A stretch of 64,000 nucleotides of DNA from sequence record ON568341.1; one strand, written 5' to 3'. The notes under the pieces are model-generated. The model searched no databases and was not told where the DNA came from. It saw only the letters and a list, made by a program, of their open reading frames with translations. The first letter of the stretch is position 1; each line of letters opens with the position of its first letter. This stretch comes from Escherichia phage UE-S1. Of this stretch, positions 34,414 to 52,732 are shown piece after piece. Made by a program: the position numbers and the translations under genes.

Positions 34414-34424
34414 AAAAGAATAAT

Positions 34425-35495
34425 ATGTATACTATTGATGATGAAATAATTAATAATAAATTTATTTCTGATACATACAATGCATATGATATATCTAAAA
34501 TAATTCTCAAGGAAAAGTATCCTCAATTTGATTGGGATACTATTGACCTTGAGAATTTAAAAACTGATGATTATTGTAAAAATGACATTATTGGATATAT
34601 ACAAGATAAAAAAAATATAAAATTGTATGGCATTAAATGTGAAAAATGCTCCCAAAATTACAAACTAAATGGTCTAGGGATATATTTTTCATATAAAGGA
34701 AATTTAGTTAAGGGTAAGTGTCCATGTAATTGTAGTAAGCATAAATTCTACACAAAATATCAAAATATTTTTTTGATTAATGAAAAAGCAAAAACGTTAA
34801 ATTATATTTTTTGTGGTTTTGTTGATGAGTATAAAGGTAAAAATAAAACAAAAATAAAATTATATTGTCCAAATAACAAACATGGTATATGGGATACAAC
34901 ATTAATATATAGTTTTATAGAATCAAACAATGGATGTATTAAATGTGCACATGAATCAGTCGGGTTAAGTAATAGTATAACTTTCGCAGATCATATAAAA
35001 GATTTTTTATCAACTGGTAAGTATAATAAAAATACAAAATTTTGGAAATCTAATAAGATTGACAGTAGAGGATATAATAATTATTGGTTTTGCCAATGTC
35101 CAATATGTAAAACTACAGTTGAGGCATCTACTACAAATCTTAAAAGTGGGAAAGTATCATGTTTATGTAACGGGAACACCCAGCAACAGGGATATATAAA
35201 TTTAGTACTTGACAATGATATACCAATTGCATTAAAATATGGAATAACATCTAATACAGAAGTCAGAGAAAAAACACAAAATCGCAATTCAATCTATGAT
35301 ATTGTAAACTGTGGTGTCTGGGAGTTTGAATCTTCTTTGTTATGTAAATCAGCAGAAGCGGAATGTAAAAGAACTTTCTCACCAGTACTTGAAGCTCGTG
35401 AAATGAAAGATGGATATACTGAAACTACATCACCATTAGATATTGACAAAATCATTGAAATATATGAAAATTGGGGTGGTGTGCGAATAAAATAA
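34425..35495 (+). CDS. Cys-rich zinc-ribbon protein with possible GIY-YIG-like C-terminal domain
   Basis: 356 aa; repeated CxxC / CxC pairs; C-terminal GYINLV...KYGITSN resembles GIY...YIG spacing. Confidence 0.4.
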   Translation: MYTIDDEIINNKFISDTYNAYDISKIILKEKYPQFDWDTIDLENLKTDDYCKNDIIGYIQDKKNIKLYGIKCEKCSQNYKLNGLGIYFSYKGNLVKGKCPCNCSKHKFYTKYQNIFLINEKAKTLNYIFCGFVDEYKGKNKTKIKLYCPNNKHGIWDTTLIYSFIESNNGCIKCAHESVGLSNSITFADHIKDFLSTGKYNKNTKFWKSNKIDSRGYNNYWFCQCPICKTTVEASTTNLKSGKVSCLCNGNTQQQGYINLVLDNDIPIALKYGITSNTEVREKTQNRNSIYDIVNCGVWEFESSLLCKSAEAECKRTFSPVLEAREMKDGYTETTSPLDIDKIIEIYENWGGVRIK

Positions 35496-35507
35496 CCGGA
35501 GGTAATT

Positions 35508-36299
35508 ATGAAATTTGTTGTAACGTCAGACGTACACGGTGGCACTGATTACCTCCATAGTGGTGATTACAGTGATACAGTACTGTTCATTGCTGGAGAC
35601 TTCGATGAAGTTAAACGCAGTCGTTACCGTACTGGTATCGAATCACTATGTAAGCAGTTCAAAAATGTAGTGCTGGTTCCTGGCAATCACGAATACTATG
35701 GTTCTAATATCCACAAAACGCATAAAGTTCTATCTGACATGCAAGATGAGATTCCCAATTTCATCTTTTTGCAAAACAAATTTGTATGGCTGGATGGGGT
35801 ACTTCTTGTTGGTAGTACTCTGTGGACAGACTTCGATAAAGGTAACTCTTTGACTAAGTTTGATGCTCGTCAAAAGATGAATGATTATAAACATATCCGT
35901 CATGGAACAACATCCGAGCCTTGGCGTAAGAAGTTGACACCAGATGATACGGAGTTCATGCATTATAAAGATAAACAATTTATTAAAAATTCTATTGACA
36001 CGGCTCGCTTTATGCATGATAATGATTTCAAGGTAATTGTGATTACACATCACGCACCAAGTTATCAAAGTGTTTCACCAAAATATAAAAATGATTCCCT
36101 GAATGGCTGTTACTGTTCAGATATGGATCAGTACATTGAAGATTTGGGTGCTGATATTTGGATTCATGGTCATGTTCATAGTAGCTTTGACTACCACATT
36201 GGTAAGACACGTATCATTTGTAATCCACGAGGCTATGAATCGTACAGTGGTGCTTGTGAGAATTTTGATTACAATCCTAAATTAGTATTTGAAATTTAA
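35508..36299 (+). CDS. metallophosphoesterase (calcineurin-like)
   Basis: 263 aa; SDVHGG, GDFDE, GNHEYY, HHAP, GHVH motifs. Confidence 0.7.
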   Translation: MKFVVTSDVHGGTDYLHSGDYSDTVLFIAGDFDEVKRSRYRTGIESLCKQFKNVVLVPGNHEYYGSNIHKTHKVLSDMQDEIPNFIFLQNKFVWLDGVLLVGSTLWTDFDKGNSLTKFDARQKMNDYKHIRHGTTSEPWRKKLTPDDTEFMHYKDKQFIKNSIDTARFMHDNDFKVIVITHHAPSYQSVSPKYKNDSLNGCYCSDMDQYIEDLGADIWIHGHVHSSFDYHIGKTRIICNPRGYESYSGACENFDYNPKLVFEI

Positions 36300-36311
36300 T
36301 AAGAGGATATT

Positions 36312-36695
36312 GTGTCATTAATTTATTTTGAACTACCCGAATATACCAATTATCCAAGCCGAGTTATTTGCTCAATATATAGTAATGCATACCATCACTT
36401 GTTAGTGAATAGTAATAAAGCTGTGCATTATTATCGAGATAAAGAACCAATTATATTAAAGAATCGTTATGGATTTAACTCAACTGATCCTGAAGTTAAA
36501 CTCTGTGATTTATCAGGGGAAGTGTTGGTTGTAATGAAATGTGATACTAATCTTTTCCATACATACAAACTTAATCAGTACTTTATGGAAACACTTTCTA
36601 TACGTTCCCATGCTCCGATGATTAAAGTTGATTTGAATTATGTTGATGATAAATTAAAATACGATCTCATAAATTCACTTGTTTATTTGGAGTAA
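36312..36695 (+). CDS. hypothetical protein
   Basis: 127 aa; GTG start after AAGAGGA. Confidence 0.5.
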   Translation: MSLIYFELPEYTNYPSRVICSIYSNAYHHLLVNSNKAVHYYRDKEPIILKNRYGFNSTDPEVKLCDLSGEVLVVMKCDTNLFHTYKLNQYFMETLSIRSHAPMIKVDLNYVDDKLKYDLINSLVYLE

Positions 36696-36696
36696 T

Positions 36697-37101
36697 ATGA
36701 ATATACGTTCAGTACGAATATTTTCATTTGTTGATAAGAATGAAAAACACTCTTATGTGTTTGAAAATGTCAATAAGTTAAATCCTCATACAGCAAAAAT
36801 GATTGAAACAATGAAAATCTTTAGCTGGAAGATAGAAGTGTTCCATCTTAATGACGATTCTGTTTTTATATATGATGATGGATGGTATGACGGTGTGTTT
36901 TATGAGGACATTAGCACAACCTCAGATTACTACTTTCTAGTGAGTAATCCACTTTTCAGTACTAACACGTTGTTTGACATTACCATTTCAAACGCGTATG
37001 AAACAAGTCATGTTGAGTTACTTAAGTTTGATCCCGTATTATTCAATAAAGAAACAGCTTACTGGATGACTGATTTCTTTTCAAATATTCCAGTAAAATA
37101 G
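36697..37101 (+). CDS. hypothetical protein
   Basis: Track ORF 36679 (TTG); ATG at 36697 after GGAG. Confidence 0.5.
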   Translation: MNIRSVRIFSFVDKNEKHSYVFENVNKLNPHTAKMIETMKIFSWKIEVFHLNDDSVFIYDDGWYDGVFYEDISTTSDYYFLVSNPLFSTNTLFDITISNAYETSHVELLKFDPVLFNKETAYWMTDFFSNIPVK

Positions 37102-37102
37102 T

Positions 37103-37131
37103 TTGGACATTTTAAATCTTAGTGATATAAT
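37103..37131 (+). promoter_or_regulatory. sigma70-like promoter candidate
   Basis: TTGGAC, 17-nt spacer, TATAAT with TG extension (TGATATAAT); 35 nt upstream of the ClpP-like gene. Confidence 0.45.
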
Positions 37132-37165
37132 ACTCACAACAACGAAATAATAGAGGAAATTAATA

Positions 37166-37861
37166 ATGGTTGAACAATTCAATTTTGGTGGTTATGCTAA
37201 TGGTGAAGTAAGTAACATTTCTATTCCGTATGTAGTTGAAAAAGTTAATGGTTCAGAGCGTACATATGATCTAGCATCTCGTATGATGCAAGACCGTATC
37301 ATTTTCCTTGATACTGATTTCAATGACCAGATGGCACATATCATCAAACAACAATTGGTGTGGTTAGACTCACAAGGTGATTCCCCTATTACATTCTATA
37401 TTAGTTCACCAGGTGGTTCAGTACATGCAGGTTTGGGCATCGCTGATATTGCTAAATCTTGTGTATCACCAATCCGTACTGTAGTAATGGGTTATGCAGC
37501 ATCAATGGGGTGTTATACACAATCTGTTATTGGGACTAAAGGCTTCCGTTTGGGTGGTAAACGTTCCTACTTCATGTGTCACCAAGTAAGTTCTGGTACG
37601 AAAGGTCTAATTACTGACCAGAAAATTTCACTTAAACATTCTGATGAACTGAACACGTTGCTGACGAAAGAAATCGCTGAAGCTGTTGGTGTTTCTCATG
37701 AACAACTACTGAAAGATGCAGACCGTGATTTGTGGTTGAATGCTGAAGAAGCACTCGAATATGGTGAAAAAGGATTTATCGATGGTATTATCCTTGGACC
37801 ACGCAACGAGAAAGGTCAATACCTAGTCAAGCGTCGTGGTGGTGTTGAAGAGTGGGTGTGA
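37166..37861 (+). CDS. ClpP-like serine peptidase
   Basis: 231 aa; SSPGGSV, catalytic-Ser box GYAASMG, His box MCHQ, Asp region DADRDLW..AEEALEYG. Confidence 0.85.
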   Translation: MVEQFNFGGYANGEVSNISIPYVVEKVNGSERTYDLASRMMQDRIIFLDTDFNDQMAHIIKQQLVWLDSQGDSPITFYISSPGGSVHAGLGIADIAKSCVSPIRTVVMGYAASMGCYTQSVIGTKGFRLGGKRSYFMCHQVSSGTKGLITDQKISLKHSDELNTLLTKEIAEAVGVSHEQLLKDADRDLWLNAEEALEYGEKGFIDGIILGPRNEKGQYLVKRRGGVEEWV

Positions 37862-40281: not shown

Positions 40282-42183
40282 TTACGCACTGATTGTTACA
40301 GTTGCAGTATCTGTTTTATTACCATCAGCAGTAGCCACTGTAATGACTACAGAACCTTCTTCTAGAGCAGTTACTAATCCCTCATCACTAATAGATACTT
40401 TAGTAGGTTCATCTGCACTATAAGTTACTGATTTGTTAGTTGCGTTAGATGGAAGAACTTCTGGAACTAGTTGAACTGTTTTAGTACCTGATAGTGAAAG
40501 TTCAGTAGTTTTAGGTGTTAAACTAACACTGGATACAGGAACTGGAATATTAACAGTAATAACACCTTGACCTGTTTTACCACTTCCATCAGCAGCAGTT
40601 GCGATAATGTTTGCAGTACCATTAGTTAGTGCAGTTACAATACCAGTACTAGCATCAACTTTTGCTACAGCAGGTTCACTAGAAGACCATGTTACAGATT
40701 TATTAGTTGCGTTAGATGGAAGAACTTCAGCAGCCATTGCTTGAGTTGCTTTAACAGCAGTCAATGTTTTAGTTGCTGGAGTAACATTAATAGATGCTAC
40801 AGGAACTGGAATATTAACAGTTACCACGCAAACTTTAGTAAATCCACCATCAGATGTGGTTGCTGTAATATTTGCAGTACCGTTTGCAACAGCAGTGATT
40901 AACCCAGTTGGACTTACCGTTGCGACACCCTCAGCAGAAGTAGTGTATGAAATATCTTTACGACGAGCGTTATCTGGAATAACAGATGCAGTTAATTGTT
41001 GAGTAGCACCTACCGAAGTTAGGGTTGCGGTCAACGGAGTCATATTAATACCAGTTACTGGGATCGTTACATCAATCACTGATTCAGCAGTTTTAGCACC
41101 ATCATCAGTGGTAACAGTAATAGTTGTAGTACCGTTATCAACCGAAGTTACTAGACCAGTATTACTAACTTTTGCTACGTCTGGATATGAAGAAACATAT
41201 GAAACTGCTTTATTGGATGCAGTTGCAGGAGCAACGGTTGTTTCTAATTGTTTAGTATCACCTAATGTTGAGAATGTATAAGTACTAGGAGTCATAGTGA
41301 CACCAGATACCGGTGTTTTCACAGTGATAGTAGTAGTATCAGTTTTAGCACCATCTTCGGTTGTTGCTGTAATCACCACTGTACCGTTAGCAACACCAGT
41401 TACTAGACCAGAAGTAGGGTTAACGGTTGCTACATCAGGTGTTGCTGAAGACCATGTAACGTTTTTATTAGTTGCATCATCAGGAGATACTGTAGCCGTT
41501 AATTGTTGAGTACCGCCAACGTTAATTGTTGCAGTTTTAGGAGAAACAATAACACCACTAACTGGAGTTGTTACGGTAAATGCACAAACATCGGTGAAAC
41601 CACCATCATGAGTAGTAACTGTTACATTTGCATTACCATTAGCACGGGCAATTGCTAAACCAGTTTCAGCATCAACTTCAACTATTGTTGGAGCAGAGGA
41701 ACTATAACTTACTGTTTTATCATTTGCATAATCTGGATCAATTGTAGCTGATAGCTGTTGTGTACTACCAACTTTAAGTGCTACAACTTTAGGTGAAATA
41801 ATAACACCATCAACTGGAGTAGTATAATCACGTTTAACCACACGACCATTGTTCAATTTAATAATACGACCCATATAAAGAGTAGTATATCCCTTACTAA
41901 TCCCATCATCTACATAAATCATGAATGAATTGTCTTGAACCATATTAATTGCGTCTACTGGTTTAACGGAATTTGGAATGTCGATACCACGGGTATCATA
42001 CCAACACATGGAAACTTTGTAATAGATATCACCATTATCATTTATGAGATCATAAACGTTACTGGAACGTTGACGGTTAATATATAAAGTTTCGGTTAAC
42101 ACCTTACCATCGATTTTAGCGACAGAAACTTTAATACCACCAATACCAAATGGCAATTTACCTTCACTAGATATTGCTTTCAT
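40282..42183 (-). CDS. Ig-like (Big_2) repeat protein, putative virion decoration or adhesin
   Basis: 633 aa on minus strand; about 120 aa N-terminal domain followed by about six tandem repeats (VSPKTATINVGGTQQLTATVSPDDATNK..W.S....VATV); TATAAATA motif upstream. Confidence 0.65.
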   Translation of the reverse strand: MKAISSEGKLPFGIGGIKVSVAKIDGKVLTETLYINRQRSSNVYDLINDNGDIYYKVSMCWYDTRGIDIPNSVKPVDAINMVQDNSFMIYVDDGISKGYTTLYMGRIIKLNNGRVVKRDYTTPVDGVIISPKVVALKVGSTQQLSATIDPDYANDKTVSYSSSAPTIVEVDAETGLAIARANGNANVTVTTHDGGFTDVCAFTVTTPVSGVIVSPKTATINVGGTQQLTATVSPDDATNKNVTWSSATPDVATVNPTSGLVTGVANGTVVITATTEDGAKTDTTTITVKTPVSGVTMTPSTYTFSTLGDTKQLETTVAPATASNKAVSYVSSYPDVAKVSNTGLVTSVDNGTTTITVTTDDGAKTAESVIDVTIPVTGINMTPLTATLTSVGATQQLTASVIPDNARRKDISYTTSAEGVATVSPTGLITAVANGTANITATTSDGGFTKVCVVTVNIPVPVASINVTPATKTLTAVKATQAMAAEVLPSNATNKSVTWSSSEPAVAKVDASTGIVTALTNGTANIIATAADGSGKTGQGVITVNIPVPVSSVSLTPKTTELSLSGTKTVQLVPEVLPSNATNKSVTYSADEPTKVSISDEGLVTALEEGSVVITVATADGNKTDTATVTISA

Positions 42184-43231: not shown

Positions 43232-43492
43232 ATGACAAACATCCAGAATTTGACGTCTATTATTTTTTATGCTACAGTGGTGATGTATACTATTGTACTT
43301 ATTTTAACAGTTTTTATTTACAAAGATTACAAAAAAGGCTTTATTAATAGCTCAACAATGAAGTTCAATTCTAAATTTGAAGCAATTATATTTTATGTTT
43401 TGACAACATCATATTTGTTGTGTATAATGTTATTAGGGTCATTGATTTATATTTTATATACAACATTATTTGCAATTGGAGCTATTTTATGA
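43232..43492 (+). CDS. small membrane protein
   Basis: 86 aa, three hydrophobic segments. Confidence 0.5.
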   Translation: MTNIQNLTSIIFYATVVMYTIVLILTVFIYKDYKKGFINSSTMKFNSKFEAIIFYVLTTSYLLCIMLLGSLIYILYTTLFAIGAIL

Positions 43493-44085
43493 CATGTATT
43501 ATTGCACACACTGATGGTGTAACTTCATTTATTGCAGGGGACAAGATGGGGAGTGATGGTTTTACGAAATCAATCCAAACAGAGCCTAAAGTGTTTGAGA
43601 AAGAATTTGTAAAGATTAGTGGTGATGACGGCTTGACTCGTACAAAAGATGTTATGACAATTGGATTCACTACATCATTTCGTATGGGTCAACTGCTAAC
43701 TTATAATTTAAATTTACCAGACCAAAATTCAAATGAGACGTTTCTACAGTATTTAGTACTGAAAGTTATTCCTATTATTCGTCAAATGTTTAAAGACGAA
43801 TGGGGTGCACGTGATACAACACAAGATGTTGGTGGTGGTCAATTTATTATTTTGCACAATCATAAGATTTATGAAATTCAGGAAGATTTTTCAGTTCTCC
43901 AGGCAAAATCAAGAGTTGCATCAGTTGGTAGTGGTACATATCATGCAATTGCAGCGATGCAAGCATACATTGATCTTGAGAAAGAAACTAACGTACAACT
44001 ACATGAACGTATCAAATCCATTTTCAAAATTGTCAGTGATAATGTGTCGAGTGTAAGCGAAGAGTTTGATGTATTAAAATATTAA
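43489..44085 (+). CDS. HslV-like Ntn-hydrolase peptidase (proteasome beta-type)
   Basis: Track ORF 43420; ATG at 43489 overlaps upstream stop; N-terminus MTCIIAHTDGVTSFIAGDKMGSDG matches HslV MTTIVSV..G...IAGDGQ; SVGSGTYHAIAA matches GSGG.YALAAA. Confidence 0.6.
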   Translation: MTCIIAHTDGVTSFIAGDKMGSDGFTKSIQTEPKVFEKEFVKISGDDGLTRTKDVMTIGFTTSFRMGQLLTYNLNLPDQNSNETFLQYLVLKVIPIIRQMFKDEWGARDTTQDVGGGQFIILHNHKIYEIQEDFSVLQAKSRVASVGSGTYHAIAAMQAYIDLEKETNVQLHERIKSIFKIVSDNVSSVSEEFDVLKY

Positions 44086-44295: not shown

Positions 44296-44304
44296 GGATT
44301 GCGT

Positions 44305-45057
44305 ATGATATCAGAAAAATTTATAAGTAATGAAGGAAACAAGAGATTACTTATCATCTCAGGAGCAGGTCTTTCCGTTGAAAGTGGGATGGAGCCATTT
44401 CGATTTGATGATGGCTTATGGGATACATTTAAAATTAATGACGTATGTAATATTGCAAATTTAGATACAAAATATCATGTTGTTCATTCGTTTTATAACA
44501 CACTGCGTGTTAAACTGGGTCAATGTGAACCAAATGCAATGCATTATTTTATCAAATCCTTAGAGGATCAATATGGTGATTGTTTCCTTCATATGACCTC
44601 CAACATGGATGATCTTTATACACGTATTGGTGGTAAAGAACTCAAACTTCATGGTAATTTGTGTGAAGTGATAGAAAATTATAGTATTAATGGTGATGAT
44701 TATAACATTGTTAACTGTGGTTATGAGCCATATATACCAAAACATGATGTTTTTGCTAAACCAAATGTAGTGATGATTGGTGAATATCACCGTTACGTTG
44801 ATGGTGTTCGTTTGCCAATATACGAAGAAAGAAATAATGTTTTAAAAACACTTACCGAAAACGATACTGTGATTGTTATTGGAAGTAGCGATACAGTGCT
44901 TGTGTGGTCCAGATTAGCTGCGGCATTGCCCTGTTATAGCGTTAATGTTAACATTCGCAAAAATGATAATGATTTTCTGTTCAATGAAAAAATTATCAAA
45001 CCAGCTACCAAAGCAATACATCAATTAGAGACTATAATTAAGGAACGTATGAAATGA
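44305..45057 (+). CDS. Sir2-family NAD-dependent deacylase / ADP-ribosyltransferase
   Basis: Track ORF 44299 (TTG); ATG at 44305; ISGAGLSVESGMEPFR (GAGIS..SGIP.FR), TSNMDDL (TQNID.L), KLHGNL, VIGSS motifs. Confidence 0.75.
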   Translation: MISEKFISNEGNKRLLIISGAGLSVESGMEPFRFDDGLWDTFKINDVCNIANLDTKYHVVHSFYNTLRVKLGQCEPNAMHYFIKSLEDQYGDCFLHMTSNMDDLYTRIGGKELKLHGNLCEVIENYSINGDDYNIVNCGYEPYIPKHDVFAKPNVVMIGEYHRYVDGVRLPIYEERNNVLKTLTENDTVIVIGSSDTVLVWSRLAAALPCYSVNVNIRKNDNDFLFNEKIIKPATKAIHQLETIIKERMK

Positions 45058-45605
45058 GTGTTAAAGAAGTTCCTTTTGGTGAATATGGTTCACGTGCCAA
45101 TTTTGTATTTTGCTATTTCTTTGCAAGAAAATGTAACCCTTACGAAAATTACGAATTGAATGATATACCAGAAGTAAATTTAGTATTACTCCAATTACGA
45201 TGGGATGGCCTTCTAGGGGGATGTGGTGGGACAGTTGAAAGTACTGATATCTCACTAGAAGATGCGTTACGTCGTGAAATTCAAGAAGAGATGGATTACA
45301 ATATTTTTGTTTCCCATCTTCGACCACTTAAAACTTTTGAAATTTATCCAGGTGCAAACAGTCATAGTTTTAGCTATGAAGTAACCTATGATGAGTTGAA
45401 ACACATTAGAGATGGATACACTAATGCTAAACATGCGAGTGCTGAAGTGGCTGGTGTAAATTTATGTCATATTTCTCGTTATTCTAAGGGACAAAATCGA
45501 GAAGCGGGATATAATAATCTTATGACTCAGAACTTCATTGGTACAGCAAAACAAGAATTGGAGTATCTGGTTCAAAAAGAAAACTTACTAATTAGTTATC
45601 TATAG
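45054..45605 (+). CDS. Nudix hydrolase
   Basis: 183 aa; ATGA overlap with Sir2 gene; Nudix box GGCGGTVESTDISLEDALRREIQEEMDY. Confidence 0.7.
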   Translation: MSVKEVPFGEYGSRANFVFCYFFARKCNPYENYELNDIPEVNLVLLQLRWDGLLGGCGGTVESTDISLEDALRREIQEEMDYNIFVSHLRPLKTFEIYPGANSHSFSYEVTYDELKHIRDGYTNAKHASAEVAGVNLCHISRYSKGQNREAGYNNLMTQNFIGTAKQELEYLVQKENLLISYL

Positions 45606-45614
45606 GAGTTTAAC

Positions 45615-45935
45615 ATGTCTTACTCAATGTTTTTGGATGATATCCGTGATGCAAATCTATATTATCCAAACCAAGATATGGTGGTATGTCGTGACTTTAA
45701 AAGTGCATGTGAATATGTTATTGAAAATGGAATTCCAGCATTTGTATCATTTGACCATGACTTGGGTGATGTGAGCGAAGACGAAAAGACTGGATATTCT
45801 TTTGCTAAGTTTCTTATTGATTATATGTTTGATAATAATATTAAAGAACCGTTTGAGTACTTTGTTCACAGTAGTAATCCTGTTGGTAAAATTAATATTG
45901 AAACATACTTAAACAATGGGTTTAACGCATTATGA
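45615..45935 (+). CDS. hypothetical protein
   Basis: 106 aa; FLDD.R ... VSFDHDLGD pattern, function unknown. Confidence 0.55.
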   Translation: MSYSMFLDDIRDANLYYPNQDMVVCRDFKSACEYVIENGIPAFVSFDHDLGDVSEDEKTGYSFAKFLIDYMFDNNIKEPFEYFVHSSNPVGKINIETYLNNGFNAL

Positions 45936-46234
45936 TTCAAACACACATCAAAAGTCTTATTTGTACTATTCTGTTGGGCACGGGAGTGTTTTTGTTCGGA
46001 CAATATCACGAGAATACTAAGCGTACCAACATTCACTACAATACCGCAGAAGTTGTTAGTTTAGGGCAATGTAGTGAGTCAAAATGTTCGTTTATGTACA
46101 AAACCAGCAATGGTGAAGTACGTAATGGACTATCAAGAGAACCAGTTTCAATTGGTCAACTTGTTTACCAGGAGTGCTGGGAAGAAAAGGTTCGAGGTTC
46201 CCGTTGCTATGTTGAATACGAACCAAATATGTAA
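45932..46234 (+). CDS. hypothetical protein with N-terminal hydrophobic segment
   Basis: 100 aa; ATGA overlap. Confidence 0.5.
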   Translation: MIQTHIKSLICTILLGTGVFLFGQYHENTKRTNIHYNTAEVVSLGQCSESKCSFMYKTSNGEVRNGLSREPVSIGQLVYQECWEEKVRGSRCYVEYEPNM

Positions 46235-46294
46235 TAATCCGAGTCAATAACATTAGTCGAGTACAAGGATGTACTCATAACTCAAGGATGTTTT

Positions 46295-47734
46295 ATGAAA
46301 AAATATACAATTGACACAAACGTACTTCTATCTGACCCTAATGCATCTATTGCGTTTGATGGTGCTGCAATCATTCTACCATTTACTGTTCTAGAAGAAT
46401 TGGATTCAATTAAGAGTCGTAGTGTGGATGTTTCACGAGATGCTCGCGTTGCTATTCGTAACATTGAAGCAATTATTGCAAATGCATCTCATGATGAAAT
46501 TAGTAGTTCTGGTGTTAATATTGCTGATGTTCATACCAATATGAATCCTGACAGCAAATTGTTTGTTATTACAAACGAAGAAGCTGAAGCACTAATTCGT
46601 ACTAAAGGTTCAAACGACAAAGTTCAAACCCTTCTCAAAAGCACTGTACCTGATGATAAAATTATTCTGGTAGCTTTAGCAACCGAATCAGTACTGGTAA
46701 CTCGTGATATCAACATGCGTATCAAAGCACTAAGTTATGGTGTCGAGGTACAAGACTATCGTCATGATATTGTTATTGGTGATAGTGATTTGATTCACAT
46801 TGGTCAACATCATATGGAAATTAATTTTTGGGATGTATATAGCAATTTAACAAATACAAATATTAAAACTGAACAAATCGGTCGTCGATTGTATCATTAC
46901 ATCCCTAAAAGCTTGATTGAGCATTTGCTTCCACAAAATCTATGTATTGGTGATTATCTATATGATGATGCTGATGTATTATTTGTATACGAAGGTCAAT
47001 CAGCCATTGAGGAAGATGATGGTACACTAACACCAGAAGATATTTTGGTATTCCAAGATATTGGTCAATCAGTAGCGTTGCGTACTAAAGTATGGGATAT
47101 TAAAGCAAAGAATATTCAGCAAGCACTTGCCATCAACAGTATTCTCGATCCTGATGTACATCTAACAGTACTACTAGGTTCGGCTGGAACTGGCAAAACA
47201 TTAGTGACGATTGCTACTGCACTAGAGTTAGTACTGGAAAAACGCAAATATGACCGTGTTGTGTTCTCAAAACCACAAGATTCACAATGGGCTGAAATTG
47301 GTTTCTTACCAGGTTCCGAAATGGAAAAAATGCTACCACATTGTGGCCCTGCACTGGATGCATTAGAATTTTTACACAAAGATGATGCCTCACCACAAGG
47401 TAGTATCGAAGAGATTCTTAAACGTAACGTGATGCAATTTAAAGCACTAAACTTTGTGCGTGGACGCTCATTCACTAATACGATTCTTGTAGTTGATGAA
47501 TTCCAAAACATTACACCTGCACAAGCAAAAACTATCTTGACACGAGCAGGATTAAACTGTAAAGTAGTGATTATGGGAAACTTAGCACAGATTGATAGCA
47601 AATTTATCAGTCCAGTAAACAGTGGTTTGACATATGTAACTGAAAAATTCAAAGATTGGAGTGGTTGCCGTATCATTGAATTAGAAGGTGTTGTTCGTTC
47701 ACCACTTGCTGAATTTGCTGAAGAAAATATGTAA
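46295..47734 (+). CDS. phoH: PIN-domain / PhoH-like ATPase
   Basis: 479 aa; N-terminal PIN-like region (IDTNVLL...LEELD); P-loop GSAGTGKT; Walker B VVDEFQN. Confidence 0.85.
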   Translation: MKKYTIDTNVLLSDPNASIAFDGAAIILPFTVLEELDSIKSRSVDVSRDARVAIRNIEAIIANASHDEISSSGVNIADVHTNMNPDSKLFVITNEEAEALIRTKGSNDKVQTLLKSTVPDDKIILVALATESVLVTRDINMRIKALSYGVEVQDYRHDIVIGDSDLIHIGQHHMEINFWDVYSNLTNTNIKTEQIGRRLYHYIPKSLIEHLLPQNLCIGDYLYDDADVLFVYEGQSAIEEDDGTLTPEDILVFQDIGQSVALRTKVWDIKAKNIQQALAINSILDPDVHLTVLLGSAGTGKTLVTIATALELVLEKRKYDRVVFSKPQDSQWAEIGFLPGSEMEKMLPHCGPALDALEFLHKDDASPQGSIEEILKRNVMQFKALNFVRGRSFTNTILVVDEFQNITPAQAKTILTRAGLNCKVVIMGNLAQIDSKFISPVNSGLTYVTEKFKDWSGCRIIELEGVVRSPLAEFAEENM

Positions 47735-47991: not shown

Positions 47992-48084
47992 TTCATTTGA
48001 AGCAATATTATGGAGTTCTTAATAAATACTTTTATAAGAATAATAATACTTTTTATTAAATTAAAAAGAACTCCATGTGTTATT

Positions 48085-48112
48085 TCAGTTTTTTATCCCT
48101 GTCAATTGGCAG
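48085..48112 (+). terminator. rho-independent terminator
   Basis: ATCCCTG-TCAATTGG-CAGGGAT hairpin followed by TTTTTT. Confidence 0.6.
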
Positions 48113-48217
48113 GGATTTTTTCTATCTCTATCTTGACAAAAGGTTTAAAACATGAGAACATACATTAAAGGTAGAATGACATTCCATTAGGTTATTTTTA
48201 ACTTAAAGGAGATATAT

Positions 48218-48775
48218 ATGTTTTTTGACCAAACATTTACGTTGTATCACGATTCTGGTAAAGTTGAGATTATTGATAATCTGCTACTGTACATTTCTGA
48301 GCATGAAGGGATAGACCGTTTTCATAGTAAGATGAAATTCGATTTAGCTGAATTCAACAAAAAGAATCGTGAAACTTTTTGGAAGAACCGATTCTATTAT
48401 GAAATGTTCCCAGAAAGGTTTGTTGGTTATTATCTTTGTACTGAGAAAGGTTTATTAGTATCTCCAGATTTACTTATGGGTGAATACATGGTTCTCTATA
48501 ATGAGTACTGGAAAAATAAACGCAACGCTCGTGACATTGAATGGAGACACAAGCGTTCTTATATGTACAAACACAACCACTCCCGATACAAACGTCCTAA
48601 AACTCAACAAGAGCGTCGTATGGCGTGTGCGGTACTGAAGGATGAGGGAGAACCTGATATACGTGGAAGACGTAAGATGCGTTCACTACCATCGTATTGG
48701 GACGATACCAGAACAAGACACAGTACTGGCTGGAAATACAGTACTAAGCGTAAAAAACAATACAAAGGGAGCTAA
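48218..48775 (+). CDS. hypothetical protein with basic C-terminus
   Basis: 185 aa; GGAG RBS. Confidence 0.55.
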   Translation: MFFDQTFTLYHDSGKVEIIDNLLLYISEHEGIDRFHSKMKFDLAEFNKKNRETFWKNRFYYEMFPERFVGYYLCTEKGLLVSPDLLMGEYMVLYNEYWKNKRNARDIEWRHKRSYMYKHNHSRYKRPKTQQERRMACAVLKDEGEPDIRGRRKMRSLPSYWDDTRTRHSTGWKYSTKRKKQYKGS

Positions 48776-48790
48776 TGCTCCCTATTTTAT
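48767..48790 (+). terminator. terminator candidate overlapping stop codon
   Basis: GGGAGCTAATGCTCCC hairpin followed by TATTTTAT. Confidence 0.45.
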
Positions 48791-48802
48791 AGGTTAAACT
48801 TT

Positions 48803-49972
48803 ATGAGCAAAATTAATGTTGATGTAGTTATTGGTTATATTGAAATTGAACCGTGTAGTATTGATACAATGATTGACACTCTTAATAAGTATCGTTTAGA
48901 GTACAGGGGACATATTAGTATTTCGCCCGACGGTGGTTACGGTGGATTCCATGGATACAATGTAATTTGGACCAGAGAAGAAACTGACGAAGAATATAAT
49001 ACACGAATTGAAGCTGAATCTAAAAGACGTGAAGAAATTGATCGTCAAGAAATGAAACACTTAATGAACAAGAAAATCATTAAGTTCCGAAGAGAAAGAA
49101 AAACTTCTAACATACATCAAGGATTACATGTAATGAAAAATGTAACTCAAGAAAAGATTCTGTACCTTGCAAAGTACAATGGTGGTTTCAATATCATTAG
49201 CCGTGAGTATCGTGGTAATTTGGCTAAGTTGATTGACAGCTTGTTAGAATTCGATTTCATTAAATGGGAAACTAATGAACTTTGGTATGAATATGCTGGT
49301 CAGAAATGGGAAAGTGATTATGATAATGCAACACATACCTATACTATCACCAAAGCAGGTGAAGTTCGTCTATTGATTTATCGTCTAGCATATGCTTATA
49401 AGAATCATAAAGATACTGATAAGCACCAACGTAGGATTGATGAATTACAGCAAGCACTTCAACAATATGATTTAGATATTAATAATTTCAAAGATTGTTG
49501 TTCTAAGAATGAACTTAAAGCAATTAATGATTTCAATAGTAAGACCACAAATGTTGAATTAACTGATTCTGTTGACTTAGAACTTTCACCATACAATACC
49601 AATCCTACTTGGGGAAGAACTCTTACTAATATCAATGATATTGATTTCAGCCAACCAGCACTGAATAATATGTTCCAAATGAGTTCAATGCTGGGTGCTA
49701 AAGGTTTTGATGCGTCAAGAACTGATGATTATGTTCTTCGTAAAATAAATGAAGAACTTGGTGAAATGACACTTGAAATGAACATCCGTGATGGGTTATC
49801 ATATAAAGAAGCAGGTAAAGATGGTGTCAAAGGTGAAGCTGTAGATCTTTGCATTTGTGCACTTGACATGTTCGCTTTGCAATGCGATAATATGAGTCCA
49901 GAAGAGATGGAACGTGAGTTCCTTACTTACATGAATGTTAAACTAGCCAAATGGCGTAAATCAATTCAATAG
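48803..49972 (+). CDS. protein with C-terminal MazG-like NTP pyrophosphohydrolase domain
   Basis: 389 aa; C-terminal EELGEMTLE ... EAVDLCICALDM resembles MazG EE.GE...E..DLL motifs. Confidence 0.5.
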   Translation: MSKINVDVVIGYIEIEPCSIDTMIDTLNKYRLEYRGHISISPDGGYGGFHGYNVIWTREETDEEYNTRIEAESKRREEIDRQEMKHLMNKKIIKFRRERKTSNIHQGLHVMKNVTQEKILYLAKYNGGFNIISREYRGNLAKLIDSLLEFDFIKWETNELWYEYAGQKWESDYDNATHTYTITKAGEVRLLIYRLAYAYKNHKDTDKHQRRIDELQQALQQYDLDINNFKDCCSKNELKAINDFNSKTTNVELTDSVDLELSPYNTNPTWGRTLTNINDIDFSQPALNNMFQMSSMLGAKGFDASRTDDYVLRKINEELGEMTLEMNIRDGLSYKEAGKDGVKGEAVDLCICALDMFALQCDNMSPEEMEREFLTYMNVKLAKWRKSIQ

Positions 49973-49980
49973 GTTTTTTA

Positions 49981-50952
49981 ATGAAAACTAAAATTATTTC
50001 TGAACAAAAAATCGGCAATACTACAGTACTGAATATTGAAGTTCAAGATCTTAGTAATGTTCGTTCTCTTACTGTTTGTACTCAGAGAGATGATTTGACT
50101 GATTTTTATAACTCCGAATACATGTCAGAAGAACATTGGGATATGGGATGGTTAGACGGTAGTAGTTATATCAGTTCTCGTTATAGTTTTGGTTCTCATG
50201 AAAATATTGAACAAGTAAAAAATGAGTATATTAAACTCAGTGATACTATTGAAATGAAAGAAGAAGATTGTGTAGAACTTTTCATTTTTGAATTCGATGC
50301 AGGAAATGGTAATTCATTACTAGTAAGTAATATTGAAGAACATTTAATGTATCATGATATTGAAGATGTAGATTTTAAAAGTATTAAAAATGTTGTTCAT
50401 ATGGTTGGTGGTAGTATTACTGATGATTCAGATATCGGTCATAATATTTCACTGTGCTTAATTTCTCATCCAAAAACTCGTGGTTTTAAAGTTCCACAAG
50501 ATGAAACTTACGTGTTTGAAACTGCTGATGAAGGAATTTATCCTTGGAATGATTATGTAGAATACTATGGTCATTTCTGTTCTGATATAAAAGAACTGAA
50601 AAAAGGCGAACGATATTTTGATATGTTCCGTGCAGCACAGCGTTTAGTACTGAATAATACTGAACTATTTCCTGATCGCGGTGAAGAAAATATGATTGAT
50701 ATTATCTTCAAGAACTATGATTATGTGCAGAACATTCCTGATAATGTACATTTGGAATATGTTCACGGTTCTTCAAACAAATTCTATAATATTGAATTGA
50801 ATGTTTCAGTGTGTGAAGTAATCATTGAGTACGGTGCTATTGGTAAAACCAGTACTACCGATGGTGAAGAATTCGAAACTATTGAAGAAGCACGTAAGTT
50901 CTTCGAGAAGAAAGTAATTTCCAAAATTAAAAGTGGTTATATCCCAAAATGA
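49981..50952 (+). CDS. protein with C-terminal WGR-like domain
   Basis: 323 aa; C-terminus NKFYNIEL...EYGAIGK...EEFETIEEARKFFEKKVISKIKSGY resembles WGR domain. Confidence 0.45.
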   Translation: MKTKIISEQKIGNTTVLNIEVQDLSNVRSLTVCTQRDDLTDFYNSEYMSEEHWDMGWLDGSSYISSRYSFGSHENIEQVKNEYIKLSDTIEMKEEDCVELFIFEFDAGNGNSLLVSNIEEHLMYHDIEDVDFKSIKNVVHMVGGSITDDSDIGHNISLCLISHPKTRGFKVPQDETYVFETADEGIYPWNDYVEYYGHFCSDIKELKKGERYFDMFRAAQRLVLNNTELFPDRGEENMIDIIFKNYDYVQNIPDNVHLEYVHGSSNKFYNIELNVSVCEVIIEYGAIGKTSTTDGEEFETIEEARKFFEKKVISKIKSGYIPK

Positions 50953-50962
50953 GAAAAATATC

Positions 50963-51196
50963 ATGAAAAATATATTCATTACATTAACAATATTTGTATC
51001 CATTATTCTCTGTGGTTGTGCTCCTAAAGTTGATGAGATGGATGCTGAAATCATCCGTCAAGGTTTAACAAAACTAAATCACCAAGGAACACTATACGCA
51101 TGTCATACTATGCGTCATGGGCAAGATCTTAATCTCATGTGCAGGAAGATTGTGAACCGCAAACGTCTTAATACTATTCCGAAGGATGCACAATGA
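50963..51196 (+). CDS. small secreted or lipoprotein-like protein
   Basis: Track ORF 50933; ATG at 50963; MKNIFITLTIFVSIILCGC signal-like N-terminus. Confidence 0.45.
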   Translation: MKNIFITLTIFVSIILCGCAPKVDEMDAEIIRQGLTKLNHQGTLYACHTMRHGQDLNLMCRKIVNRKRLNTIPKDAQ

Positions 51197-51363
51197 AAGA
51201 AGTAATTGGCTACAAATGCAAAAATTGTGGCAAAGATATGGGTAAGCATTCAGTACAAGGTATGGCTTGTCCAAATCCAGGACGTGGTAATTTCAGAGGG
51301 TTCAGTACTGAAAAGTTTTATGAACCTGATTATTCAAAACCAGTAATGGGTTATAAATTATGA
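51193..51363 (+). CDS. small zinc-ribbon protein (56 aa), candidate
   Basis: ATGA overlaps on both ends; MKEVIGYKCKNCGK...CPNPG; below track cutoff. Confidence 0.35.
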   Translation: MKEVIGYKCKNCGKDMGKHSVQGMACPNPGRGNFRGFSTEKFYEPDYSKPVMGYKL

Positions 51364-51719
51364 GTGATTATGTGGCATTTCTTCATCGCTTTGGTGAAGC
51401 TAAAGAAAAACATATTATTCGTATGCCCGTATATGGTGAAAAAGACTGGTACAAAAGCACTATCAGTGTTGGTGCATTTCGTGACCGTGAAGCTGAATTC
51501 TTTCTGGGTAAGCAGCATGAACGAGAAGTACTTTGCTCACTTTGGCGTTTAGATGAGTGGGATAGTGAAAATTCCAGAACGGCTGAATCAATGATGGCTA
51601 TTGTTGGTATTGCGAACTATCAGCACCCATATAATCTATTACCTACATTTGAACATGCTTCTTTGTTTGACTTTTACAAAGCTGTAGGGTATGATTATAA
51701 AAAGAAACGTTACGTTTAA
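51360..51719 (+). CDS. hypothetical protein
   Basis: 119 aa ORF. Confidence 0.55.
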   Translation: MSDYVAFLHRFGEAKEKHIIRMPVYGEKDWYKSTISVGAFRDREAEFFLGKQHEREVLCSLWRLDEWDSENSRTAESMMAIVGIANYQHPYNLLPTFEHASLFDFYKAVGYDYKKKRYV

Positions 51720-51752
51720 CATCAGTAATGTTCTTTTAAATTGGAGATTATT

Positions 51753-52367
51753 ATGACTACATCGGAAAAGTACTGGTGGATTTTGGGTCATCCTAAATTC
51801 ATAAACAAAGATATGGTTCCAGCTAGGATTGAGATAGAACCCCATGATGTGTGTCCAATGACAAATCGAATTGAAGATTTCAAAGCATTAAATACAAAGA
51901 CTCAATTTTGGGTAGAATTTCTTTCACCAATGTATATTGAGCAAGACGATGAATGGGTACAAGCACATGATTACCAATTAGATTGTGGTGGTGATACGTA
52001 TGAAGAGGCCATTGATGAATTATACAAAAATGTGCTAAAAACATATGGTGATTATACCCAACAAGAAGCTGACGATAAATTTAATAAGACCCATGCATTC
52101 AAATCTACTCAATCAATTTTTAATCCCACTAAAACTGTTTGGGAGGAACGACATAGTTGGAGTTCATGTGTAATCGATGAAGAAACCAAAGAAACAATTA
52201 TCGATGACATAAAAAATGTAAAAAATACAATAGAAGCCTTGCGTGAATTCATAAAGTCTTGTACAATAGAACAACAGAAAGAGGCAAAGATACATTTGGA
52301 GAGTGAAGAATGTAAACTTTGGGTTCTAGAGAAATCGATTGAAAAGGGTATAGACTTAGACATATGA
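51753..52367 (+). CDS. hypothetical protein
   Basis: Track ORF 51741 (TTG); ATG at 51753 after GGAG. Confidence 0.55.
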   Translation: MTTSEKYWWILGHPKFINKDMVPARIEIEPHDVCPMTNRIEDFKALNTKTQFWVEFLSPMYIEQDDEWVQAHDYQLDCGGDTYEEAIDELYKNVLKTYGDYTQQEADDKFNKTHAFKSTQSIFNPTKTVWEERHSWSSCVIDEETKETIIDDIKNVKNTIEALREFIKSCTIEQQKEAKIHLESEECKLWVLEKSIEKGIDLDI

Positions 52368-52732
52368 ATAGTAAATTGGCGAAACTAATCGAAGATTTAC
52401 GCCAGATGCCGCCTATTGAACAAGTAGGAAATTACAAACGGTATCGTGTTATTGCTCGTGCACTTGATAAAAAAGGTCGAGTACTGGCAACTCGTACCAA
52501 TTCTTATACACAGACTCACCCAGTACAGAAGGGTTTCGCCATTCGTGCTGGGCGACCGCAAGGTGAGTTTCTTCATGCTGAAATTTCATGCTTACTGGCT
52601 GCTCGTGCTGATGTTCATACTTTACTGATTGCACGGATAAGTAAAGATGGAATTCCTGTTCCAGCCAAGCCTTGTGAGATTTGTACGTTGGCAATTATGG
52701 AATATGGGGTCAAAGAAATTATTCACACATGA
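52364..52732 (+). CDS. cytidine/deoxycytidylate deaminase-fold zinc protein
   Basis: 122 aa; HAE ... PCEIC zinc-binding motifs of the CDA fold. Confidence 0.6.
   Translation: MNSKLAKLIEDLRQMPPIEQVGNYKRYRVIARALDKKGRVLATRTNSYTQTHPVQKGFAIRAGRPQGEFLHAEISCLLAARADVHTLLIARISKDGIPVPAKPCEICTLAIMEYGVKEIIHT

Follow-up and report, generated by a model that had tools for sequence, protein, structure and literature searches.

What a MazG-like and a WGR-like protein encoded side by side do in a phage is not obvious. Large phages often carry MazG-like genes, but we know of almost none with a known substrate, and WGR domains are, to our knowledge, recognised mainly as PARP DNA-break sensors, their bacterial and phage roles being essentially unexplored. 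We addressed the question in a 64,000-nt stretch (the window) of Escherichia phage UE-S1 (ON568341.1), which is from an Asteriusvirus-like jumbo phage. An earlier note had read positions 48803-50952 as two adjacent proteins, each with a large unassignable N-terminal region, and had suggested that they could modulate host signalling. Its observation was confirmed in part, and its interpretation is partly supported.

Gene layout

Three co-oriented, closely spaced genes, not two, occupy 48803-50952 on the plus strand. Adjacent MazG-like and WGR-like products do exist, but the 389-aa ORF at 48803-49972, formerly taken as the first protein, is gene A and gene B joined by a single extra A. Gene A (48803..49133) encodes 109 aa in relatives and matches phrog_25568 over residues 1-95 (E = 1.3e-43). 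It is a separate CDS in UB, 121Q, fEgEco12, slurp01 and eight contigs. Gene B (49133..49972; 279 aa) has its native start at ATG 49133, as indicated by protein P0001, gene calls in eight-contig series L011-L018 and the sequence context: an AAGGA Shine-Dalgarno lies 9 nt upstream, and the start overlaps the gene A stop as TAATG. P0001 (279 aa), present in 20 contigs, is 100% identical to the gene B product. The WGR gene (49981..50952; 323 aa) starts 8 nt past the gene B stop. A consensus scan placed a weak terminator-like hairpin (7-bp stem, 5 GC pairs) at 48766..48783 on the plus strand, just 5′ of gene A, and a gene A-gene B-WGR transcription unit may possibly start there. Terminator-like sites numbered eight in the scanned region against 3.1 expected; the promoter scan found 46 against 42 expected, no excess over chance.

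Domains of gene B

In the structure predictions, which were of monomers, residues 1-92 (49133..49408, plus strand) form an alpha/beta, winged-helix-like domain similar to PadR/MarR. According to the model secondary structure, residues 96-139 form a helical linker, followed by a segment of low confidence and variable length (140-161), the two being placed at 49418..49615 (plus strand); residues 140-161 had pLDDT <50 in the model and fell in indel-rich columns of the family alignment.

Residues 176-279 (49658..49969, plus strand) constitute a MazG-like domain with the four-helix core of the all-alpha NTP pyrophosphohydrolase superfamily, a fold common to MazG, HisE, DCTPP1 and dimeric dUTPases. 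The superfamily binds metal through acidic residues spaced as EExxE ... ExxD on two neighbouring helices, a motif reportedly described by Moroz and colleagues in 2005. Gene B carries an EELGE...E motif (E207/E208/E211/E215; 49751-49765) and a GEAVDL motif (E235/D238/D245; 49832-49849), both on the plus strand, together with K270 and W274. E207-E208-x-x-E211 and E235-x-x-D238 align to EELGE and EEIGD of YpjD, and all of the superfamily's Mg2+-holding acidic residues are present (EExxE, 23 residues, ExxD).

The MazG-like C-terminal region claimed earlier was upheld by this motif, by a match to PHROG 1247 (E = 2.6e-15) and by the second-iteration profile A4, which reached YpjD (E = 1.7e-4) and 5ie9 (E = 1.1e-3) in a 177,635-sequence database; the latter links were seen only with a profile limited to the C-domain and enriched in remote homologues. 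A first-pass full-length gene B profile found nothing relevant among PDB sequences. Of the two domains for which searches had been proposed, WGR was found in Pfam, and MazG was linked through PHROG 1247 and profile A4. No MazG-type Pfam family was found for the ORF at E ≤ 0.1 or for the isolated domain at E ≤ 1, no NCBIfam MazG family for the ORF, and no MazG-type Pfam family at E ≤ 1 for the KVP40, PTm5 and phiN3 homologues. We dropped a transitive proof of membership through Pfam, because neither the 138 clade members, with zero matches to Pfam MazG models, nor the GenBank "MazG-like" phage proteins, whose names derive from PHROG 1247, match a MazG model. As gene B falls below the curated MazG models, we call it a MazG-like superfamily member, not MazG. 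Its clade, which Pfam does not detect, numbers at least 1,382 cluster representatives.

Gene B belongs to the same sequence clade as the PHROG 1247 "MazG-like pyrophosphatases" (KVP40.0035, nt-1, PAU gp295 of a Sphingomonas phage, phiN3 gp317 of a Sinorhizobium phage) and the "nucleoside triphosphate pyrophosphohydrolase" of Tenacibaculum phages PTm1/PTm5. They share 35-46% identity with it (tblastn), matches to PHROG 1247 and phrog_15672, and the EExxE...ExxD...K..W pattern, and like it do not match the Pfam MazG model. In contrast to gene B, which has ~165 extra N-terminal residues and a WGR partner gene, they stand alone at 93-106 aa. No characterised substrate was found for clade members in the sources searched. 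The four-helix core and in-register metal-binding motifs are shared with Bacillus subtilis YpjD (2gta), 5ie9, integron iMazG (2q73/2q5z), Sulfolobus solfataricus SSO3215 (1vmg), mouse DCTPP1/RS21-C6 (2a3q) and HisE (1yvw). However, identity to these solved proteins is only 12-19% in structural alignments, and gene B differs from them in a longer loop between the motif helices (SYKEAGKDG) and in its fusion to a DNA-binding-type domain. The substrate specificity of these proteins is no guide to that of gene B. Atd1, compared by description only, is a phage enzyme of the MazG superfamily that acts as a (p)ppGpp pyrophosphatase and weakens abortive infection by TIR-NADases (Ho et al., bioRxiv 10.1101/2022.06.09.495361). 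Such counter-defence, tied to NAD-depleting immunity, fits the alarmone idea of the earlier note. Unlike gene B, Atd1 is described with twin catalytic motifs and without a nucleic-acid-binding partner.

The WGR protein

The WGR-like segment proposed at the end of 49981-50952 is a WGR domain (residues 256-322; 50746..50946, plus strand) by PF05406 (42.0 bits against a cut-off of 22, E = 1e-10), and the WGR fold, a beta-sheet packed on a C-terminal helix, is present. PBECO4, UB, slurp01 and fEgEco12 carry the annotation "WGR domain-containing protein". The architecture is shared by 28 homologues, all of which match PF05406 (28/28). Comparable frameshifts break the WGR gene in TH47 and contig L016. 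The Trp-Gly-Arg signature itself is absent from the domain, which reads E-Y-G-A-I-G-K at 50827-50847 (family consensus EYGG/AVGK); relative to W-G-R-x-G, the Gly is retained, W is replaced by Y, and R by A or G. The preceding ~250 residues (49981..50730, plus strand), beta-rich and helical, are confidently folded without a match to a solved fold. They contain conserved FDAGNG (50293-50310), LLVSN, GGSITDDSDIG (50407-50439) and HPKTRGFKVP (50467-50496), all on the plus strand.

WGR domains are nucleic-acid (end)-binding modules, and that of PARP recognises 5′ ends at breaks. In MolR-like transcription factors, a WGR domain is combined with a MolR-type C-terminal region (DUF4132). Neither a PARP-type ADP-ribosyltransferase catalytic domain adjoining the WGR nor a second Pfam family such as the MolR-type DUF4132 was found in the phage protein, in which the WGR is C-terminal. 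It differs from PARP-1/2/3, Bacteroides fragilis Q64V53 (2ra8) and MolR-type proteins in lacking the ADP-ribosyltransferase domain, zinc fingers and DUF4132, in its YGA(I/V)G rather than WGRxG signature, and in the ~250 residues without a recognisable fold match before the WGR. PADLOC assigned neither ORF to a defence-system family; its sole match was a weak one to WGR_XIII (E = 0.054).

Association and genomic setting

In distant phage contigs, we found single proteins that combine the same MazG-like domain with the WGR protein, in either order (P0117/P0119; P0114). These fusions are a new finding of this analysis. In all, three fusion architectures, in independent contigs, join this MazG-like clade to the WGR protein. 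Judged from individual contig look-ups, 9 of 10 lineages have the WGR gene no more than ~1 kb downstream of gene B, and it nearly always follows directly, with stop and start codons overlapping or almost abutting. An IMG/VR scan for WGR-protein loci gave pattern matches and zero confirmed relatives. Because related phages fuse the WGR protein to the same MazG-like domain, the two probably work together. More broadly, phages repeatedly combine the MazG-like domain with the WGR protein, a winged helix, NADAR or NUDIX. PBECO4/121Q-type phages have a decayed gene B allele, short and without catalytic residues, and 121Q has no WGR gene; the module is therefore accessory.

The three genes lie 1 kb downstream of a plus-strand block of Sir2 (44299-45057; Pfam E = 7e-20), Nudt16-like NUDIX (45054-45605; E = 1e-18), cREC (cREC_REC; 45615-45935; E = 1.5e-22), a 100-aa ORF and PIN-PhoH (PIN_4+PhoH; 46295-47734; E = 4e-20/1.6e-42). 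The 1 kb between PhoH and gene A contains two small genes and a pair of terminator-like hairpins. The same block stands upstream of gene B or MazG::WGR fusions in seven other loci (L006, L008, L010, L019, L020, L021 and L027), and the fusions sit directly after Sir2-x-PIN/PhoH. Proximity to the block is conserved and the fusions abut PhoH, but all cases come from one related phage clade.

Sirtuin-centred phage neighbourhoods have been predicted to serve NAD+-dependent RNA repair (Iyer et al. 2022, PMC9503650, section 3.7.3). Type 1, Sir2-2H-Nudix-cREC-PIN, occurs in jumbo phages and Serratia phage BF. Its linked Sir2, Nudix, cREC and PIN recur in the window (44299-47734). Gene B and the WGR protein, which may be functional parts of this system, do not appear among its listed components; in BF, the published prototype, a gene B homologue lies 3 kb downstream of PhoH. 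A 2H/Acb1 gene, present in relatives, was not detected in the window, and the NAD-salvage genes NAMPT and NMNAT, found in L020 and BF, were absent from the 12 kb upstream. Type 2, Sir2-tRNA ligase-cREC-kinase-MazG, belongs to rV5-like phages, in one of which the protein beside Sir2 has the EExxE...ExxD pattern. This rV5-type MazG did not match the gene B clade by HMM, and hhalign put the motifs in register at a non-significant E = 0.16.

Joint or independent functions

On balance, we favour, with modest confidence, a reading of the MazG-like enzyme and the WGR protein as an accessory module in which catalysis is directed to nucleic acid. The gene boundaries, the frameshift, the folds, the conserved motifs, the fusions and the linkage are shown directly; that gene B is catalytically active, that nucleic acid is bound, that the two proteins cooperate physically and what they do for the phage are inferred from these. 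The MazG-like catalytic domain would be delivered to, or regulated at, nucleic acid by interchangeable binding modules: in the window phage a winged helix would serve in cis and the WGR protein in trans, and in other phages the WGR protein would do so in cis. For an accessory module within a Sir2, NUDIX, cREC, PIN-PhoH jumbo-phage block, the most likely role would be in a host conflict centred on nucleotides and NAD or in the processing of nucleic-acid ends; bulk dNTP house-cleaning is less likely.

It is possible, though we think it rather unlikely, that the two proteins act independently and are neighbours by inherited synteny, gene B being a pool-editing MazG-type enzyme (dNTP house-cleaning or Atd1-like (p)ppGpp hydrolysis) and its neighbour a MolR-like DNA-binding transcription factor. 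Iyer et al. (2021) suggested the latter role for QAY00573.1, a WGR protein from a jumbo phage; PMC7824862, which has WGR as a transcription factor and MazG-like enzymes degrading unmodified NTPs, and the Atd1 preprint point the same way. Most phages carrying gene B do so without WGR (117 vs 17 records), WGR persists beside the decayed gene B of PBECO4-type phages, L026 breaks the linkage, and dCMP deaminase and NrdD, genes of nucleotide metabolism, lie downstream in the window. Independence would, however, leave unexplained the three fusion architectures in both orders and the near-constant adjacency of the two genes, and it is not evident why an enzyme that edits pools should need a winged-helix domain.

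A more specific version of the joint reading is speculative and, in our judgement, improbable: that the MazG-like domain and WGR protein are an undescribed modular pyrophosphohydrolase directed to nucleic-acid ends, the missing step of the jumbo-phage Sir2-NUDIX-cREC-PIN/PhoH system. The WGR module or winged helix would recognise an end or a lesion in nucleic acid, in the manner of PARP WGR at breaks, and the MazG-like domain would then take pyrophosphate off a polymer-linked or locally made nucleotide. For example, 5′-triphosphate ends might become ligatable 5′-monophosphates, or an NAD/ADP-ribose-derived or base-modified nucleotide might be destroyed. We know of no all-alpha NTP pyrophosphohydrolase that acts on nucleic-acid ends or is targeted by a WGR domain.

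Enzyme or regulator

All-alpha NTP pyrophosphohydrolases are Mg2+-dependent and convert (d)NTP to (d)NMP + PPi. As gene B retains every Mg2+-holding acidic residue, it is most likely an active pyrophosphohydrolase, predicted to split the alpha-beta phosphate linkage of a substrate of the nucleoside-triphosphate type. That it is instead mainly a transcription factor of the winged-helix kind, with a MazG-like domain for nucleotide sensing or dimerisation, seems to us quite unlikely. The PadR/MarR-like domain would suit a regulator, as would the short alleles kept as ORFs in PBECO4/121Q without catalytic residues; besides, MazG-like domains are obligate oligomers, their active site being formed by a homo-dimer or tetramer. 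But the metal-binding residues are invariant in samples of 82 and 56 members of a very large family, most of whose proteins are ~100 aa long and stand alone, a pattern expected of an enzyme, and within gene B it is the MazG-like part that is conserved and the winged-helix part that varies.

The extra base

Base-level alignment to TH47 and L011-L018 showed that the AAAA run at 49073..49076 (plus strand) has one additional A versus all relatives. Thirteen relatives have AAA at this site and two separate genes, and in 8 of the 13 the gene B product is 100% identical to that of the window. Deleting one A gives back the gene A C-terminus ...NKKSLSSEEKEKLLTYIKDYM followed by its stop; with the extra A, gene A is frameshifted and so reads on into gene B, exchanging its conserved last 18 residues. 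Among sequencing errors, indels in homopolymer runs occur most often. Judging from the alignment, the extra A is a sequencing or assembly error or a strain-specific, recent mutation, and gene B can still be expected to start from its own ATG. A genuine three-part protein, possibly made by programmed slippage, is very improbable: the ORF is open along its entire length and the shift site is A-rich, but the relatives' two genes, the replaced gene A terminus, the error-prone homopolymer and the similar WGR-gene frameshifts all argue against it. Programmed frameshifting as the source of the 389-aa ORF was rejected since the relatives lack the extra base.

Implications

The gene model of the locus is corrected, in that one base joins two genes. 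With their decayed allele, the reference phages PBECO4 and 121Q are unsuitable for work on the enzyme. The repeated joining of the MazG-like domain to WGR and other modules turns the locus into a testable hypothesis, that a nucleotide pyrophosphatase may work on or next to nucleic acid in the jumbo-phage NAD/RNA-repair block.

The long open reading frame is two genes

The earlier note had described two adjacent ORFs, 48803-49972 (389 aa) with a MazG-like C-terminus and 49981-50952 (323 aa) with a WGR-like one, and both were present. Its domain calls stood, but its gene model was wrong in one respect: the 389-aa ORF comprises gene A (109 aa, 48803-49133) and gene B (279 aa, 49133-49972; a winged-helix-like domain, a linker and a MazG-like C-domain). 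Annotations of this stretch in phages UB, 121Q, fEgEco12 and slurp01 give a 109-aa gene, a TAATG overlap and then a 215-218-aa gene. PHROG profiles split the ORF (phrog_25568, residues 1-95; phrog_15672, residues 104-389), and in tblastn its residues 1-91 and 87-389 fell in separate frames in every relative. Base-level alignment revealed one responsible base difference, AAGAAAATC in the window vs AAGAAATC in phage TH47 and eight metagenome contigs. In these contigs the gene B product was 100% identical to that of the window and gene A 98-99% identical, and the two were called as separate genes in all eight. The 279-aa protein, identical to residues 111-389 of the window ORF, was recorded in 20 contigs. 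Deleting one A from the window sequence restored the conserved C-terminus of gene A, and gene B still has an ATG of its own (49133), preceded by an AAGGA ribosome-binding site. Considering the two-gene calls in relatives, the single base difference and the restored C-terminus, we attribute the 389-aa ORF to a homopolymer indel that arose in sequencing or by very recent mutation. A functional 389-aa fusion, as the window reads, is hardly tenable.

The WGR gene was broken by comparable frameshifts in the TH47 record MT446416 (labelled 'UNVERIFIED'; locus L004, about 5500) and in contig L016 (4148-4214). Together with the extra A of the window, this suggests that homopolymer sequencing errors are common in assemblies of this phage group. 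More distant relatives had two tandem gene A paralogues directly upstream of gene B (loci L006 7346-7992, L008 5537-6194 and L023 5298-5947), 28-39% identical to gene A of the window.

The MazG-like domain of gene B

The MazG-type motif reported by the earlier note is real (EELGE 49751-49765, GEAVDL 49832-49849). Several independent lines converged on a MazG-like C-domain. PHROG 1247, 'MazG-like pyrophosphatase', matched it (E=2.6e-15), whereas Pfam and NCBIfam MazG models gave zero matches to gene B, its homologues and the phage proteins named 'MazG-like' in GenBank. The names of these deposited proteins trace to PHROG 1247; tblastn from gene B found such genes in KVP40, nt-1, PAU and phiN3. 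In Foldseek, the top two among 350,542 PDB chains were integron MazG, but with weak E-values. A C-domain profile enriched with remote homologues of ~100 aa matched YpjD (E=1.7e-4) and the nucleotide pyrophosphohydrolase 5ie9 (1.1e-3), followed by iMazG, SSO3215 and HisE; EELGE of gene B aligned with EELGE of YpjD, and GEAVD with EEIGD. As the MazG models miss it and the GenBank names derive from PHROG 1247, we assign the C-domain to the all-alpha NTP pyrophosphohydrolase superfamily and not to MazG proper.

An exhaustive HMMER search gave 1,382 cluster representatives of the clade, the group within PHROG 1247 that contains this domain (508 at E<=1e-10). Its members were mostly stand-alone proteins of ~100 aa, some in tandem. 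Residues E208, E211, E215, E235, D238, D245 (gene B numbering) and K270 showed no variation in two samples, of 82 and 56 members. Among gene B homologues, the C-domain was 54-82% identical even when the N-terminal half was swapped for a different one. From the invariant residues and this conservation, the pattern appears to be that of an enzyme.

Some metagenomic clade members carried NADAR (P0246 and one further protein) or NUDIX (P0164 and P0226), and single members carried DUF1937 and DUF4170. The stand-alone member gp317 of Sinorhizobium phage phiN3 (L030 256-825) lies directly upstream of a gene for a PnuC-like nicotinamide mononucleotide transporter. The NADAR and NUDIX partners and the PnuC-like neighbour, although small in number, hint at NAD, ADP-ribose or nucleotide processing.

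Linkage and fusion with the WGR protein

The WGR-like C-terminus of the 323-aa protein was borne out by Pfam (42 bits vs a threshold of 22, residues 256-322), and GenBank already names it 'WGR domain-containing protein' in PBECO4, UB, slurp01 and fEgEco12. In nine of the ten non-redundant lineages with separate genes, down to 38-40% protein identity (e.g. Erwinia phage Hallingskeid, L008, L010, L024 and L025), gene B is followed within ~1 kb by the WGR gene; L026 was the one lineage breaking the adjacency. In Hallingskeid, the order is gene A, gene B, a 65-aa gene and the WGR gene, with overlapping stops and starts. However, adjacency by itself might simply reflect inheritance, since the loci all come from a single broad group of related jumbo phages. 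Gene B occurred in 117 phage records vs 17 for the WGR protein, and 121Q, L006, Serratia phage BF and RaK2/K64-1-type phages had gene B without it.

Gene B of the PBECO4/UB/121Q type is a 215-218-aa allele that has lost the EELGE helix and carries ISVQ in place of EAVD (UB, L001 6128-6984; 121Q, L002 4133-4780; L003 4132-4898; L005 2128-2979). Over the first ~105 residues it shares 88% identity with gene B of the window. Downstream of it, UB, fEgEco12 and slurp01, but not 121Q, retain 38-72 residues of the window-type C-terminus as an out-of-frame remnant (89-97% identical). The arrangement resembles a recombination scar, and the enzyme looks decayed; such phages are probably without an active enzyme at this locus. 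The WGR gene was kept in most phages carrying the short allele.

The case for a link between gene B and the WGR protein rests on fusions. Among clade members longer than a single domain, Pfam revealed WGR in two, P0117 (424 aa) and P0119 (421 aa), with the MazG-like domain N-terminal and WGR C-terminal; against the phage WGR-protein profile, their WGR domains had hhalign probabilities of 97.4% and 95.5%. In P0114 (442 aa) the order was reversed: residues 40-316 aligned with almost the entire WGR protein, including the GGxxxDDxD motif (columns 51-317, probability 91.2%, E=9.8e-7), and the MazG-like domain followed at 338-436. The ORFs were continuous, P0252, a cluster mate of P0119, was found on 12 contigs, and read-through of one gene order cannot give both orders, all of which argues against an artefact. 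All three fusions sit directly after Sir2, a small gene and PIN-PhoH in phage contigs, and these contigs share downstream dCMP deaminase/AAA_28/NrdD synteny. One locus also had an upstream NAMPT and an NMNAT-NUDIX gene.

Genomic neighbourhood

The AT-rich window (31-36% GC) carries almost all of its genes on the + strand. Forty phage records matched region 48000-52400, and the best matches were all ~350-kb Asteriusvirus jumbo coliphages (TH47, UB, PBECO4, slurp01 and 121Q; 90-94% identity). The + strand row at 32992-37861 includes genes for an ATP-dependent DNA ligase (32992-34413), a CapR-domain protein (34425-35495), a calcineurin-like phosphoesterase (35508-36299) and a ClpP-family protease (37166-37861). 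The sole large - strand gene encodes a six-fold Big_2 Ig-like protein (40282-42183).

About 1 kb upstream of gene A, Pfam identified Sir2, a Nudt16-like NUDIX, cREC (cyclic-phosphate processing receiver) and PIN-PhoH in a row (44299-47734). This block corresponds to the 'type 1' sirtuin-centred neighbourhood of Iyer et al. 2022 (PMC9503650, section 3.7.3), who took Serratia phage BF as its prototype and predicted that it repairs RNA in an NAD+-dependent manner; BF has a gene B homologue at the same relative position. The Sir2 ORF was listed from TTG 44299 (252 aa) and relatives annotate 250 aa; translation probably begins two codons later, at an ATG (MISEKF...). An Acb1/2H gene lies just upstream of Sir2 in L006 and L010, and the window ORF upstream of Sir2 (43420-44085) had zero Pfam hits.

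A MazG-superfamily protein forms part of the 'type 2' neighbourhood described for rV5-like phages (Iyer et al. 2022, PMC9503650). In the rV5-like Escherichia phage AlexBoehm, a 237-aa hypothetical protein directly after Sir2 (L031 7310-8023) has EEEFNEVLEE...KEACDL, typical of the superfamily, and is probably that protein. Pfam and PDB sequence searches gave it zero matches, and no significant link to the gene B clade was found.

Two terminator-like hairpins, GC-rich with T-rich tracts after them (48095-48116 and 48766-48783), flank a 185-aa gene (48218-48775, phrog_12793); in the scanned region, eight such sites were observed vs 3.1 expected. As both lie between PhoH and gene A, gene A, gene B and the WGR gene may form their own transcription unit.

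Discussion

The WGR annotation is public, the literature mentions MazG-like enzymes of jumbo phages, and PHROGs already covers the clade. Our literature searches found no mention of the winged-helix-MazG-like architecture, of MazG-like::WGR fusions (in both orders) with their fixed place behind Sir2-PIN/PhoH, or of a decayed gene B locus in reference phages.

The gene boundaries are clear, two folds are confident, the catalytic signature is intact, and the MazG-like domain and the WGR protein are both fused and linked. It is possible, if somewhat unlikely, that the two proteins have independent functions, gene B in pool editing or in Atd1-like alarmone hydrolysis (the earlier note had suggested changes in nucleotide or alarmone pools that could modulate host signalling), and the WGR protein as a transcription factor; the many phages with gene B without the WGR gene sit with this reading, and the fusions stand on the other side. 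That gene B, with its winged-helix-like domain and enzyme-like conservation, is purely regulatory seems improbable. We slightly favour a predicted active, Mg2+-dependent pyrophosphohydrolase whose catalytic domain would be recruited to nucleic acid through exchangeable binding modules: the winged helix acting in cis, and the WGR protein acting either in trans or in cis. A WGR-targeted enzyme acting on nucleic-acid 5′ ends or an NAD-derived nucleotide is rather doubtful. For the phage, the targeted pyrophosphohydrolase may play a part in a conflict centred on nucleotides or NAD, or else process ends.
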